Shown: piece by piece, positions 7,430-39,546 of the stretch
Numbering within the stretch: the stretch's first letter is position 1
Layout of the letters: each line of letters opens with the position of its first letter
From: an uncultured Nitrospiraceae bacterium
GTDB taxonomy: Bacteria; Nitrospirota; Nitrospiria; Nitrospirales; Nitrospiraceae
Direction of reading: 5' to 3'
NCBI GenBank assembly: GCA_963846575.1
Contig: CAWJWJ010000002.1
Location: forward strand, 1,312,001 to 1,376,000
DNA: 64,000 bases
The notes under the pieces: model-generated
Told to the model about the DNA's origin: nothing
Seen by the model: only the letters and a program-made list of their open reading frames with translations
The model's database searches: none
Program-made: the position numbers and the translations under genes

Positions 7430-7469
7430 TGCGCCCGTAGCTCAGTCGGATAGAGCATCAGCCTTCTAA
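7430..7469 (+). repeat. Left att site: 40-bp direct repeat = 5' half of tRNA-Arg(TCT) up to the anticodon loop
   Basis: TGCGCCCGTAGCTCAGTCGGATAGAGCATCAGCCTTCTAA identical to 39469..39508. Confidence 0.95.
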
Positions 7470-7602
7470 TCTTCTCCTGAACATACCTGTATCTCGTTGT
7501 TGCATCAGCGGAAAGCGGCCACAGCAGCAAGATTTCGCAGATTTACCACGTACCGCTAATGTGGGCTGAGTGAGGGCAATTTAGGTGAATTCGGGTGGAA
7601 AT

Positions 7603-7621
7603 CTAACACCCTATTAACATC
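7603..7621 (+). promoter_or_regulatory. Putative integrase arm-type sites (tandem TAACAY-C)
   Basis: CTAACACCCTATTAACATC vs CTAACACCCTAATAACACC at 39399..39417. Confidence 0.6.
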
Positions 7622-8549
7622 AAGGAAAGTACTTATCAAATCCTAATCTTCCCAAGCCCTCCTGATCTTTCATCACATTTCCGGGTGATTCCGCAAAACT
7701 CCGCTTTTGGCGCAAGTTTGCACGGGGTTGACCAGTTGGATTTATTCCGGTCAATTCAGGCGAGTTTGGTTCTGTTTTGCTGTAGGGCTGACACTCTAAT
7801 GGCCCCGAATGCAGCGATCACCGAGCCCAGCGACGTGCTCCAGGGATGCGGGAGTCTCGTCCAAGGGCGCATCGCATGGTCCAAGGCCACCATCGCCAGT
7901 AAACTGATCCAAAAGGAGAACAGTCCCCTACGGGAATTAATTGACCATTCGATTCTCTTTGGCCCTTCAGGGGCTACCAGGGCACGGTCGGCAGCTTCAG
8001 CAACTTCACCTGTACGATATAGCTGCGAGTCGTGCTAGAAATAGTTTCCTGTACCACGGCCGGTTTGTCGGCGAAGGATAAAGTATGAGTGGCCCCCTGC
8101 TGTGCGTCTTTACACCAGAATGGCGTCCCGGACGCAGTGTAGTACAGCACTAGCAACGGATCATAGTCGCTGCCGTCTTCTCGTAGATGCCTTCGTCCAC
8201 ACTTGGCGTGGCGGCATTATGATCCGGAACGACTTCCTGCATGATCGGGACGAGTTGGGGCGGGCAGTAGTTCAGGGGGCGTGGGAGGGACAACGGATTT
8301 TTCCATCATGTTATTTGGCTTCAGTTGGCATTCACAATTCGCCGCTGGCCACCGCGTGCTCGAACGCGGGCAGCAGGCCGAGCAGGTCTCAGAAAGATGG
8401 CGTCATGTCGACGCTTCCTCCTCTTCGCCGCGAATTCTTTTTGACCATGGCAGTTGGTCGCTGAGAAACAGCCCCCTAAGTCCCCGTTGATCTGACTCAT
8501 CTGACGGACTACGATATCGGCAGGCCACCCAGCCACCGGAGGACCCATC

Positions 8550-8942
8550 ATGCCCAAACCTAAGAGTCGGGCTGGAACTCGCCCGACGGTACAATCCATT
8601 GCCTCCTATGTGCAGAAAAATGCAAGCCGCGTCCTGCACATCCAGCAACATCAGCACCCCGTGACCGACAGCGTTCGAGAGGCCGACTATCAGGGCCATC
8701 ATATTGTTGTGCGCACTCACTATGAGATCGAAGTGGACGGGCGTGCGGTGACCGGCCATATGGGCGTGACGAATGATGGCCACGTGCATTATCATCCCGT
8801 GCCGAATATGTCGTTTGCCTCGGCCATTGATTTAGTGAAACAGCTCATTGACGTGTTCCCCGATGACTTCTCCAAAAAGGCACCACGGACTCGACGCCGA
8901 CGTCCGGCACGGAAGCCGACACGCACTCGTCCGCATCACTAG
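8550..8942 (+). CDS. Tyrosinase caddie/copper chaperone (MelC1-like)
   Basis: YQGHHIVV...VDG...HMGVTNDG..HYHPVP pattern; His-rich; directly upstream of tyrosinase. Confidence 0.7.
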   Translation: MPKPKSRAGTRPTVQSIASYVQKNASRVLHIQQHQHPVTDSVREADYQGHHIVVRTHYEIEVDGRAVTGHMGVTNDGHVHYHPVPNMSFASAIDLVKQLIDVFPDDFSKKAPRTRRRRPARKPTRTRPHH

Positions 8943-8968
8943 ACGCCACCGGAAGGATAGTACGCACT

Positions 8969-9925
8969 ATGGCAGTCACCCGATTCAATGTCCTGGCAAA
9001 CCCCGCGGTGAGGCAACAGTACACTCAGGGCGTCATGCTGCTGAAGCGAGAGTTTACTGGCCCTACGACCACGAGTCTTGGCATCGCGGGACCGTCGCGC
9101 CTCGTGAGTACCTATGACCTCTTCGTCGTCTGGCACCACACCGCCATGTCGACCCTGACCCCACCGACCCAAGGTGATCGCAACGCCGCCCATCGGGGGC
9201 CGGTCTTTTGCCCCTGGCACCGCTTCATGCTGTATCAACTTGAACTCAATTTCCAGCGAGTTTTAAACGACACGACATTCGGGCTGCCATATTGGGATTG
9301 GGCCGCCGACGGTGAGGGGTCTCCCACGGAGCAGAGGCGATCGGCCTTGTGGGCCGCCAACGCACTGGGAGGCTCAGGGAGTCCGGTCAGAACCGGGCCG
9401 TTTAGATACAACGCGGCTACCGCTAACAGTTTCCGTGTGCGGATCGAAGCAAACGTCAATGGCCAGCTCGTGCAAGTAAATCGCGGGTTGCGACGTGCGC
9501 TGGGCTCGCAAATCTCGGCGTTGCCCACAACCAGCGACACTCAGGGAGTGGTGGCCATGACTCCGTACGATACCGCGCCTTGGGATACCTCTTCCTCAGG
9601 ATTCCGCAATCGGCTTGAGGGCTGGGCCCCGCCCGCCGCGCCGGCTCTCCATAACCGCGTGCATGTCTGGGTGGGCGGCGACATGCTCCCGTCAAGTTCT
9701 CCGAACGACCCGGTCTTTTATCTCAATCACTGCAACGTCGATCGCCTCTGGGAAGGCTGGCTCACGCAAAACGGACGGTCCTATACGCCGCTCCAAAGTG
9801 CGCCATCGGCCTTACGCGGCCACCGGATCAACGATCTAATGGAGTCGTTCATGTCTCCGCCGATGCGGCCGAACGACGTTCTGGATATGCGATCCATCTA
9901 CACCTACGAGGATCTGAGCCCCTAG
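8969..9925 (+). CDS. Tyrosinase (type-3 copper protein, MelC2-like)
   Basis: YDLFVVWH, AHRGPVFCPWHR, LPYWDW, LHNRVHVWVGGDM, SPNDPVFYLNHCNVDRLW. Confidence 0.93.
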   Translation: MAVTRFNVLANPAVRQQYTQGVMLLKREFTGPTTTSLGIAGPSRLVSTYDLFVVWHHTAMSTLTPPTQGDRNAAHRGPVFCPWHRFMLYQLELNFQRVLNDTTFGLPYWDWAADGEGSPTEQRRSALWAANALGGSGSPVRTGPFRYNAATANSFRVRIEANVNGQLVQVNRGLRRALGSQISALPTTSDTQGVVAMTPYDTAPWDTSSSGFRNRLEGWAPPAAPALHNRVHVWVGGDMLPSSSPNDPVFYLNHCNVDRLWEGWLTQNGRSYTPLQSAPSALRGHRINDLMESFMSPPMRPNDVLDMRSIYTYEDLSP

Positions 9926-37807: not shown

Positions 37808-38068
37808 GTGCGCCTCCTTCTTCATTTCTATGTAGCCCCACCCTTCACAAACCGAGGGTGGGGCGTAGAAGAAGAGGCGGCACGGGGCTCTCGCAGCGGG
37901 CAGGCCTGGAGGGGCGGAGACCGGCACGGAGGGGACCGGGAAGGCCTAGCCTGCTGCTCCCTGGCACCGGGCCGCACCCGCATGGAGGTGGATGCATCGA
38001 GGAAATTCGGCGGCAACAAGGGGCTACTTGTCTGTTCATATTTGTGCTGAAAAGGGTGTGAGAAAACC

Positions 38069-38287
38069 ATGAGCAAGCTTTTGACAATGGATGAGGCATC
38101 GGAGTATCTAGGCATATCAAAATTGACTCTCTATGGCTGGGTGTCTGCCCGGAAGCTTGGTTTCGTGAAAGTCGGACGCCTCGTTAGATTCAAACAGGAA
38201 CACCTCGACAAGTGGATCGATCAACACACGGTCAAGGCGCGAGTAGAGACGCAGAAGTTTTTTGACTGTGGGTCACAGCAAAGATAG
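38069..38287 (+). CDS. xis: Excisionase (HTH_17)
   Basis: LLTMDEASEYLGISKLTLY...KVGRLVRF; upstream of int. Confidence 0.85.
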   Translation: MSKLLTMDEASEYLGISKLTLYGWVSARKLGFVKVGRLVRFKQEHLDKWIDQHTVKARVETQKFFDCGSQQR

Positions 38288-38332
38288 GGGTGGCCTAGCT
38301 CAGGGCAGATTAATACGAGCAGGAGTAGAAAA

Positions 38333-39442
38333 GTGGGACTGACCAAGCGACGTAACAGCTACTATGTAGAGTTTCGGGTGCTTACTTCAGAGGATGGGAA
38401 GTCGTACAGGCTTGCCTCTGAGGTACACGGCGCGAGGCTTAAACGATGGAAGGTGGGTTGCCTTAACAAGCAGGTAGCGCGAGAGATGGAAGCTGCCATC
38501 AGGATGAATCTCCTCTTGGGCAAGGTTCTGACAGCAGAAGCTCGGCCTGTTCTGTTTTCTGAGTGGGCTACTACTTATCTGAACCTGGAGGAAGTGAAGG
38601 CTCTGCGGTCGTATCGAGATCGATCAGACAGAGTAAGCAAGCAGTTAGTTCCGTATTTCGGTGGCGTGATCCTGGGTGAGATCAGACCACAGGATGTGGA
38701 GTCCTTCAGAAGCCAGAGAGTCAGGAAGGATGGAAGGGCAGCCAGTCTACAGACCATCAACCACGACCATGTGGCGTTGAAGCATTGCCTAAACGTGGCC
38801 ATTCGGCGGGGGCTCTTGAATAGCAATCCCGCGAGCAAGGTTCCAATACCCAATCCGCAGAACGAACGCGACAGGGTGCTAGGGGTCGAGGAGTGGGATA
38901 GGCTATATCAAACGGCGAAGCCACATCTTCAGCCAGTCATGCTCTTGGCATATCAGCTTGGGCAACGGTTCAGGGAGATCATCGAATTGACTTGGGACCG
39001 GATTGACTTAAGGCGAGGATTCATCCTTCTGAGGTCTATTGACACAAAAACCAAGCAGCGTAGGGAAGTCCCTATGACTCCAGCGGTCAGGACTATGCTT
39101 CAAAAGCTGGCGAAGGTGCGGAGACTTGAAACGAATCGGGTCTTTCTGTACAAGGGCAAGCCGCTGGGTCGGGTGTCTAGAGCGTTCAAGAGCGCTCTCA
39201 AGGAAGCAGGTCTATCAGACTTCAAGTTCCATGACCTTCGACACTGCGCCTCCACCAACCTTAGAAGGGCAGGGGTGGACACAGCAACCGCCATGCGGAT
39301 AGTTGGTCATAAATCTGAGAAGATGTGGAAACGGTATAACGCTATTGAGGAACGGGACTTGACGCAAGCAGCGGAAAAGCTCGATAAGTTCCTGGCAACT
39401 AACACCCTAATAACACCTGGGCAAAGCTCTCTTGGGTCATAG
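38333..39442 (+). CDS. int: Tyrosine recombinase/integrase
   Basis: GQRFREI (R), TKT (K), FHDLRH, VGHK, KRY catalytic set. Confidence 0.95.
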   Translation: MGLTKRRNSYYVEFRVLTSEDGKSYRLASEVHGARLKRWKVGCLNKQVAREMEAAIRMNLLLGKVLTAEARPVLFSEWATTYLNLEEVKALRSYRDRSDRVSKQLVPYFGGVILGEIRPQDVESFRSQRVRKDGRAASLQTINHDHVALKHCLNVAIRRGLLNSNPASKVPIPNPQNERDRVLGVEEWDRLYQTAKPHLQPVMLLAYQLGQRFREIIELTWDRIDLRRGFILLRSIDTKTKQRREVPMTPAVRTMLQKLAKVRRLETNRVFLYKGKPLGRVSRAFKSALKEAGLSDFKFHDLRHCASTNLRRAGVDTATAMRIVGHKSEKMWKRYNAIEERDLTQAAEKLDKFLATNTLITPGQSSLGS

Positions 39443-39469
39443 AGTATTAACTAATTGATAAATCAGGTT

Positions 39470-39546
39470 GCGCCCGTAGCTCAGTCGGATAGAGCATCAG
39501 CCTTCTAAGCTGAGGGTCGTTGGTTCGATTCCAACCGGGCGCACCA
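39470..39546 (+). tRNA. tRNA-Arg(TCT); 5' half forms the right att repeat
   Basis: GCGCCCG/CGGGCGC acceptor stem, anticodon TCT, GGTTCGATT T-loop, encoded CCA. Confidence 0.97.

Follow-up and report, generated by a model that had tools for sequence, protein, structure and literature searches.

Filamentous phages of the inovirus type have genomes of about 5–15 kb (PMC6813254, in part), and the rows shown of this survey hold one Nitrospirae prophage, of 7.5 kb; larger entries may exist. In the stretch of 64,000 nucleotides analysed here, called the window (uncultured Nitrospiraceae bacterium, assembly GCA_963846575.1, contig CAWJWJ010000002.1, positions 1,312,001–1,376,000), an element of 32,039 bp is integrated at a tRNA-Arg gene. 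As judged from sequence, it is one of a family of elements, integrated at tRNA genes, in which a conserved set of filamentous-phage genes is combined with variable cargo. These Nitrospiraceae elements are probably oversized inoviruses that carry islands and exceed the usual 5–15 kb two- to threefold. No description of such a family appeared in search listings of the literature accessible without subscription.

Among the described systems, the Pseudomonas Pf prophages (Pf4, Pf5 and Pf-tRNA groups) similarly have their own tyrosine integrase, an HTH_17 excisionase and tRNA attachment (att) sites, and combine several integrase types and accessory genes with one core (PMC7549136, in part). However, the Pf prophages span 7.3–13 kb in this source, whereas the Nitrospiraceae elements span 11.9–49.6 kb with cargo larger than the core, always encode RadC, have two coat-like genes after pI, and use a tyrosine or a serine recombinase at 5'- or 3'-half tRNA sites. 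The Vibrio filamentous prophages, CTXphi and the satellites RS1 and TLC share with the elements the order Rep, ssb, Ace-like pVI and Zot/pI, an accessory hot spot and helper-dependent derivatives. In contrast to the elements, the Vibrio prophages have 6.0–13.3 kb and few cargo genes (PMC11630473, in part), and CTXphi integrates via host XerCD at dif. The idea of a large island packaged as filamentous phage was raised before for VPI, the 41-kb TCP island, and was refuted, the island being without morphogenesis genes (PMC3545932, in part); the Nitrospiraceae elements differ from it in having a full, selected morphogenesis set inside their att sites. Finally, integrative and mobilizable or conjugative elements (IMEs/ICEs) with a Rep_trans relaxase of the MOBT type share an integrase and Rep_trans with a GC-rich nick hairpin, and the jumbo-phage-transduced islands I23, I44 and I55 share RadC, AlpA, defence cargo and island size. 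Unlike both, the window element encodes no coupling protein or type IV secretion system (T4SS), and in the parts of the sources that describe them both groups come without the pI, pVI and coat genes of the Nitrospiraceae elements.

The tRNA-Arg element and its gene set

It was proposed in the initial annotation that one pair of 40-bp att repeats encloses both a metal block and a phage module. This holds: the repeats are identical (Table 1; chance expectation of such an exact repeat in 64 kb about 1e-14), and no degenerate inner att was found between them when up to 6 mismatches in 24 nt were allowed. An 11-mer, presumably an integrase arm site, lies just inside both ends. The element has the tRNA-fragment repeats, the integrase and the empty site in relatives that characterize tRNA-integrated genomic islands. 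The cargo has a GC content of 0.56, compared with 0.62 for the backbone and 0.60–0.63 for the flanks. In 7 of 30 genus loci a tRNA-Pro gene lies 182–299 bp before tRNA-Arg with no integrase between them, and the remaining loci carry integrase remnants or whole elements. The tRNA-Arg site of several relatives is empty of both cargo and backbone; cargo without backbone, named beforehand as a refuting observation, was not encountered at this site, and no other result so named turned up in the sequence data.

The backbone (32.2–39.4 kb of the window) comprises the inovirus module, RadC, xis and int. It contains the genes expected of an inovirus, i.e., a pI-like ATPase, a small single-span major coat protein, pIII and pVI, and a rolling-circle initiator with a likely origin. 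The proposed module of Rep_trans, ssb, pIII, pVI, Zot and pVIII-like genes with xis and int was borne out by profile matches, weak in the case of ssb, with pIII assigned from ESM Atlas features (TspB, of weak recognition) and position. The pVIII protein of the window gave no Pfam match and nothing meaningful in a PDB search; its homologues match PF05356 in 11 of 14 cases (best E 4.3e-5), phrog_7106 in 12 of 14 and phrog_6548 in 9 of 14. No secretin is encoded in the element (no pIV), and two are present in the host genome. As claimed earlier, conjugation, FtsK and tailed-phage families were absent, as were transposases, among the 40 open reading frames (ORFs) of the element that were scanned; the scan of phage families (phrog) gave one chance-level terminase cross-hit of the pI ATPase. 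The hallmarks of an ICE are missing, with no T4SS ATPase or coupling protein among the element ORFs and PF03135 absent from the window genome. The combination of integrase, PF02486 and nick hairpin that marks a MOBT-type IME is present and, being common to rolling-circle phages, is not diagnostic. By their sequences, the elements pass as inoviruses in gene content but fall outside the 5–15 kb range in size, with 32.0 kb for the window element and more than 15 kb in 25 of the 29 family elements.

The virion genes are under purifying selection according to dN/dS values of 0.038–0.068 for pI, pVI, both coat genes, Rep and ssb (11–12 elements). Rep, pI and pIII are full length in all 26 relatives checked, with an open pI frame of 303–382 aa in each. 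In a second batch of elements pI is open throughout, RadC and integrase are fragmented in genome G269 (G numbers denote genomes, L numbers metagenome loci), and the pIII match of G040_a is in two pieces.

Moreover, a GC-rich hairpin precedes rep, and its 7-pair stem is unchanged in 29 elements and three Rep-only elements. Characterized Rep_trans proteins nick CT'AA in the loop of a GC-rich hairpin (PMC9371924, in part). The window hairpin resembles the characterized nick hairpin in place and shape, so that it is likely the Rep_trans nick site.

Spread, size and cargo of the family

Matches to the pI protein (E<=1e-20) were found in 59 of 301 family genomes and in 20 of 38 other genomes of the genus; in a sample of the phylum there were matches in 16 of 64 family genomes and a weak one in a single other genome. 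Close pI relatives come mostly from Nitrospira or Nitrospiraceae. From the 93 pI matches of relatives, 38 were chosen for long contigs, and the backbone gene order is identical in all 38 elements, nearly all of which end at a tRNA. Att pairs were mapped in 27 of them and in two copies of the window genome. The resulting 29 sizes, measured to the nearest att and including the same element in two rows, range from 11.9 to 49.6 kb (median 21.7 kb), and a cargo-free 7.5-kb form is not among them. For 11 elements no bounds were obtained, as they reached contig ends, were of the serine type or gave no repeat; none of these has a tRNA repeat directly before the helix-turn-helix (HTH) gene. The smallest element encountered has 10.6 kb (L210). 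Compared with GenBank phages, the backbone matches 162 records, all below 60% identity and at best about 31%; among plasmids, five records match in bits of RadC alone.

A search of relatives for the same backbone with other cargo, suggested at the outset, was successful, the cargo differing each time. This variable cargo measures about 4–28 kb, once 42 kb, and is rarely common to different elements. Among 87 ORFs of 9 elements, out of 190 ORFs listed from 19 elements, the cargo families include restriction-modification types, AIPR, AbiEii, TIR, subtilase-AAA, Tle1-like lipases, RND pumps, chlorite dismutase and one TrwB-like ATPase. As far as these annotations go, most of what the family carries concerns defence, signalling and metabolism, metal cargo being one instance and not the rule. 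Furthermore, tRNA sites and integrases interchange among the elements.

The window genome itself (G000) has four backbone copies, the other three being 84–90% identical in DNA to that of the window. The tRNA-Phe copy (25.3 kb) carries sulfur-metabolism genes. The tRNA-Lys copy, which appears to span the break between two contigs (G000:C2 end / C1 start) and would then have a length of 22.8 kb or more, carries glycosyltransferase and Wzm/Wzt genes. The tRNA-Ala copy has a serine recombinase and about 33 kb by synteny, with signalling genes and the same tyrosinase as the window cargo; no att repeat was found for tRNA-Ala serine-recombinase copies, their bounds being taken from flank synteny. In addition, three Rep_trans-xis-int elements of 11.8, 9.5 and 6.3 kb (C2:129–141 kb, C2:517–527 kb, C1:846–852 kb) have the same nick-type hairpin and no virion genes, and may be satellites or IMEs. 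Likewise, 5 of 80 metagenome loci (L228, L246, L254, L255, L263) are without ssb, pIII, pVI and pI and have retained Rep, RadC, the two hairpins and int, like satellites that arose as deletion derivatives.

Transfer of whole units and alternative vehicles

G120 and G168 share 29,260 bp from attL to the tRNA-Lys end with 5 mismatches and 2 gaps (99.98% identity), whereas the host DNA beside the element is 78–80% identical, which argues that cargo and backbone move together. Of the earlier idea of an island that moves metal operons, the movement of a whole cargo-plus-backbone unit between species is supported by this pair; metal, being the cargo of the window copy, was too narrow a description. 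Copies within one genome tend to cluster in the pVI-pI tree whatever their site (most branches are unresolved), and two G225 copies are identical in the pVI-pI region with differing cargo and integrase, which together suggests recombination between co-resident copies. The G225 copies (G225_a and G225_b), with attL equidistant from pI, were considered as one moved unit and dismissed, as their cargo differs.

That the elements are oversized inoviruses is favored by the single att pair with matching arm sites and no inner att, by 29 bounded elements of which none is backbone-only, by the G120/G168 unit that moved whole, by the intact and selected virion genes, and further by the coat B match of the homologues, the conserved hairpin, the mostly absent VirB4, the satellite-like loci and the precedent of an engineered M13/lambda ssDNA (single-stranded DNA) of 51,466 nt (PMC7435391, in part). 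On balance, and with more reserve, we favor the wider scheme in which a filamentous phage has become a general vehicle for islands in Nitrospiraceae. Filaments several micrometres long, encoded by the elements themselves, would bring circles of 12–50 kb with genes for defence, metals, sulfur and the cell surface from one species to another, and neither lysis nor conjugation would be needed. The integrase slot would be modular, and satellites would depend on helpers. In the window, Xis and Int would excise the 32-kb circle, and Rep_trans would nick the single hairpin at about 32,500 and displace the full circle as ssDNA; since there is one origin inside one att pair and no second copy of the hairpin, rolling-circle replication would copy the whole 32 kb. 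The displaced strand would be coated by ssb and extruded by pI, pVI and the coat proteins through a host secretin. Filament length scales with DNA length, so that the particle would be about 5 micrometres long on the scale of KSF-1 (7,107 nt and 1.2 micrometres in the part of its description used). In a new cell Int would insert the circle at its tRNA, and co-resident copies would likely recombine within the backbone that they have in common, exchanging cargo and integrase.

Packaging of whole elements would mean that inovirus genomes in nature attain two to three times the upper size accepted so far. Entire operons could then travel by filamentous phage, although such transport is usually ascribed to conjugation and tailed phages. 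What was claimed in error for VPI, a filamentous phage with the size of a large island, would be realized in these elements, and long ssDNA would have a natural scaffold in this system. As nitrifiers, the hosts live in natural and engineered waters, in which phage defence and the handling of copper are important. Virus catalogues clip the elements to a 5-kb core and therefore miss the cargo.

Several points weigh against packaging of whole elements. The family sizes exceed the published range, and the earlier phage claim for the 41-kb VPI proved wrong, although VPI had no morphogenesis genes. The pre-rep loop reads GTAA or GTCA, in contrast to CT'AA in the characterized Rep_trans family. The transfer case is one genome pair, for which an assembly mix-up is possible. 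Terminal repeats were found in none of 13 IMG/VR records and none of 80 metagenome loci, many of them partial, and no circle, ssDNA or particle was observed. After Lys-type integrases 11 core-only junctions fit tandem arrays equally well, four of them on contigs of 68–394 kb; 7 other junctions carry the full tRNA. Finally, the window copy is frameshifted as assembled, with one-base indels in the HTH gene, Rep, the Zn-finger, the pIII leader, the pI tail and two cargo genes.

With regard to these frameshifts, it is rather doubtful that the window copy is dead, i.e., that the indels are real and the copy is at most excised and packaged in trans, as the breaks just listed would have it. The window backbone has 5 private one-base insertions yet 16 private substitutions, compared with 0–1 indels and 8–52 substitutions in 14 relatives; the other copies of the window genome have 1, 2 and 18 private indels (18 in the tRNA-Lys copy at the contig end). 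Of 18 backbone loci 8 were flagged as broken, vs 4 of 55 others. Since the breaks cluster in repeated DNA and private substitutions are normal, we infer that the frameshifts are uncorrected long-read errors.

Among the rivals for the family as a whole, it appears unlikely that excision and integration of the whole unit are combined with another vehicle, either Rep_trans as a MOBT-like relaxase with helper conjugation or transduction by a large tailed phage, the virion module serving smaller members or another purpose. PF02486 proteins do act as relaxases in ICEs and IMEs (PMC6499999, in part), a jumbo phage transfers islands of 23–55 kb that encode integrase, AlpA and RadC (PMC12595487, in part), the three elements of the window genome that lack virion genes share the hairpin, and 3 of 14 coat homologues weakly match VirB2 pilin. 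However, coat B outscores the pilin, the virion genes are intact and strongly selected in the large elements themselves, and a VirB4-type ATPase is present in one of the five hosts searched (G144), being absent from G000, G120, G168 and G072 and hence from both genomes of the transfer pair. It is improbable that the tRNA hot spots hold a normal inovirus of 7.5 kb and that the cargo is debris of older tandem islands, with the inner att eroded and a short piece packaged. Tandem accretion does occur, as seen in the integrase remnant next to attL and in the doubled att copies of G184, G107, G225_a and G101; core-only junctions lie on long contigs, and IMG/VR lists pieces of 3.5–10.4 kb only. However, none of the 29 bounded elements consists of the backbone alone, the smallest having 11.9 kb and one metagenome locus 10.6 kb; the window has no inner att, cognate arm repeats lie at the far end, a 29-kb unit moved whole, and the 13 IMG/VR pieces are clipped at gene ends, none being circular. 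Scans of viral contigs gave 2 short records for the integrase and 8 for the hairpin. A 5.3-kb sub-genome between the two hairpins of the backbone was unsupported, as the hairpin loops differ and the IMG/VR record ends are gene ends.

Annotated features and further observations

The features are collected in Table 1. Three of them go beyond the initial annotation, namely the one-base indels, the RadC gene and the integrase remnant at 6917–7415. The names arm site, pVII/pIX-like protein and packaging signal in the table are presumptive.

Table 1. Features of the tRNA-Arg element and its borders (window positions)
Feature	Position	Strand	Basis or remark
Fragmented integrase of older element, same site, outside attL	6917..7415	+	tblastn 37–54% to element integrase, three frames
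attL core, 5' half of tRNA-Arg(TCT)	7430..7469	+	exact 40-bp repeat
Putative integrase arm site, 11-mer	7603..7613	+	same 11-mer at 39399
Small partner protein and tyrosinase	8550..9925	+	PF00264; 92% copy in cargo of tRNA-Ala element, same genome
Csp1-like copper storage protein	10204..10719	-	TIGR04401 below cut-off; DUF326
CopZ and Cu P1B-ATPase	11533..14225	+	Pfam, NCBIfam; ATPase split near 12120
DUF4396-multicopper oxidase, CopA oxidase (in pieces), CopB	14442..19252	+	Pfam, NCBIfam
Multicopper oxidase and TolC-family protein	19388..22463	-	Pfam, NCBIfam
SAM methyltransferase	23205..23894	+	Pfam
CzcCBA/CusCBA-family RND pump, CDF zinc transporter, YnfA	24738..31624	+	TIGR00914, TIGR01297, NF002586
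HTH_17 xis/AlpA-like regulator	32228..32540	+	profile matches; indel near start
GC-rich hairpin before rep, likely rolling-circle nick site (dso)	32484..32508	+	stem invariant in 32/32 aligned elements; fold z -4.6
Rep_trans initiator	32537..33530	+	PF02486 in both halves; one indel near 33070
ssDNA-binding pV-like (ssb) protein	33733..33996	+	phrog_378 weak, E 0.044; dN/dS 0.07
24-aa membrane protein, presumably pVII/pIX-like	34017..34091	+	size and place
pIII/TspB-like receptor-binding protein	34088..35357	+	ESM Atlas TspB clusters, score 0.94, low recognition value; position; indels in leader
pVI minor coat (Ace-like, DUF2523)	35354..35629	+	phrog_306 E 3.9e-9; Pfam
pI/Zot morphogenesis ATPase	35709..36715	+	PF05707 E 5.8e-30, phrog_197 E 1e-44; indel in C-terminal part
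Major coat protein pVIII (coat B-like), signal peptide	36877..37089	+	homologue profile matches; ESM Atlas
Second coat-like paralogue, 42 aa, no signal peptide	37179..37307	+	33% to pVIII; dN/dS 0.06
RadC-like JAB protein	37304..37807	-	PF04002; adjoins coat gene in all mapped elements
Second conserved hairpin, candidate packaging signal or lagging-strand origin	37834..37863	+	before radC; compensatory stem changes across genera
Excisionase	38069..38287	+	TIGR01764
Tyrosine integrase, intact	38333..39442	+	PF00589, phrog_1; ends 27 bases before attR
attR core	39469..39508	+	exact 40-bp repeat
Intact tRNA-Arg(TCT)	39470..39546	+	overlaps attR

The cargo of the window element (8.5–31.6 kb, about 24 kb) serves Cu/Zn homeostasis according to Pfam and NCBIfam profiles and includes three multicopper oxidases in all. 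Pieces of it occur at 65–86% identity in 32 of 38 genus genomes, the whole block in none. On a 27,070-bp contig of another strain the backbone HTH gene and hairpin are joined to the methyltransferase and the RND-CDF-YnfA block (the latter 94.5% identical over 5.5 kb), in an order that differs from that of the window. An imperfect inverted repeat (73%; 10,818–10,854 / 23,910–23,946), near two small unannotated ORFs at the edges of cargo modules, may be an operator.

Between tRNA-Pro and attL the window genome has a further ~10 kb (window 1–7,429 and G000:C2:1309225–1312000) with pqqB/C/E, YeeE-type genes, a sorbosone dehydrogenase and the broken integrase, a decayed older island and earlier tenant of the site. 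Integration duplicates the tRNA 5' half, and the intact tRNA ends up downstream of the integrase (window 39,442–39,546; also in the G094, G011_c and G269 elements). Being separated from its tRNA-Pro operon, the intact tRNA-Arg would need a promoter supplied by the element; a sigma-70 scan, with 2 sites vs 2.5 by chance, revealed no sigma-70-like site beside the tRNA. A crude scan found no CRISPR array in the window genome.

In the backbone, the tandem coat-like genes (36,877–37,307), one with and one without signal peptide, are both strongly selected. RadC (window 37,304–37,990 together with the region before it) is the sole minus-strand gene, so that incoming plus-strand ssDNA would be its template. 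The region before radC is structured (z -3.4) and might be an ssDNA promoter for early anti-defence expression. The G116 elements (L049, L051) and L176 have a second RadC copy and an insert of 2.2–2.4 kb between coat genes and xis. Five diverged 44-nt repeats outside the element (window 60,166–61,142) probably belong to a repeat protein. Finally, 15 of the 80 metagenome loci (L187–L245) come from one assembly and occupy several tRNA sites, which indicates that the family is diverse within one community.

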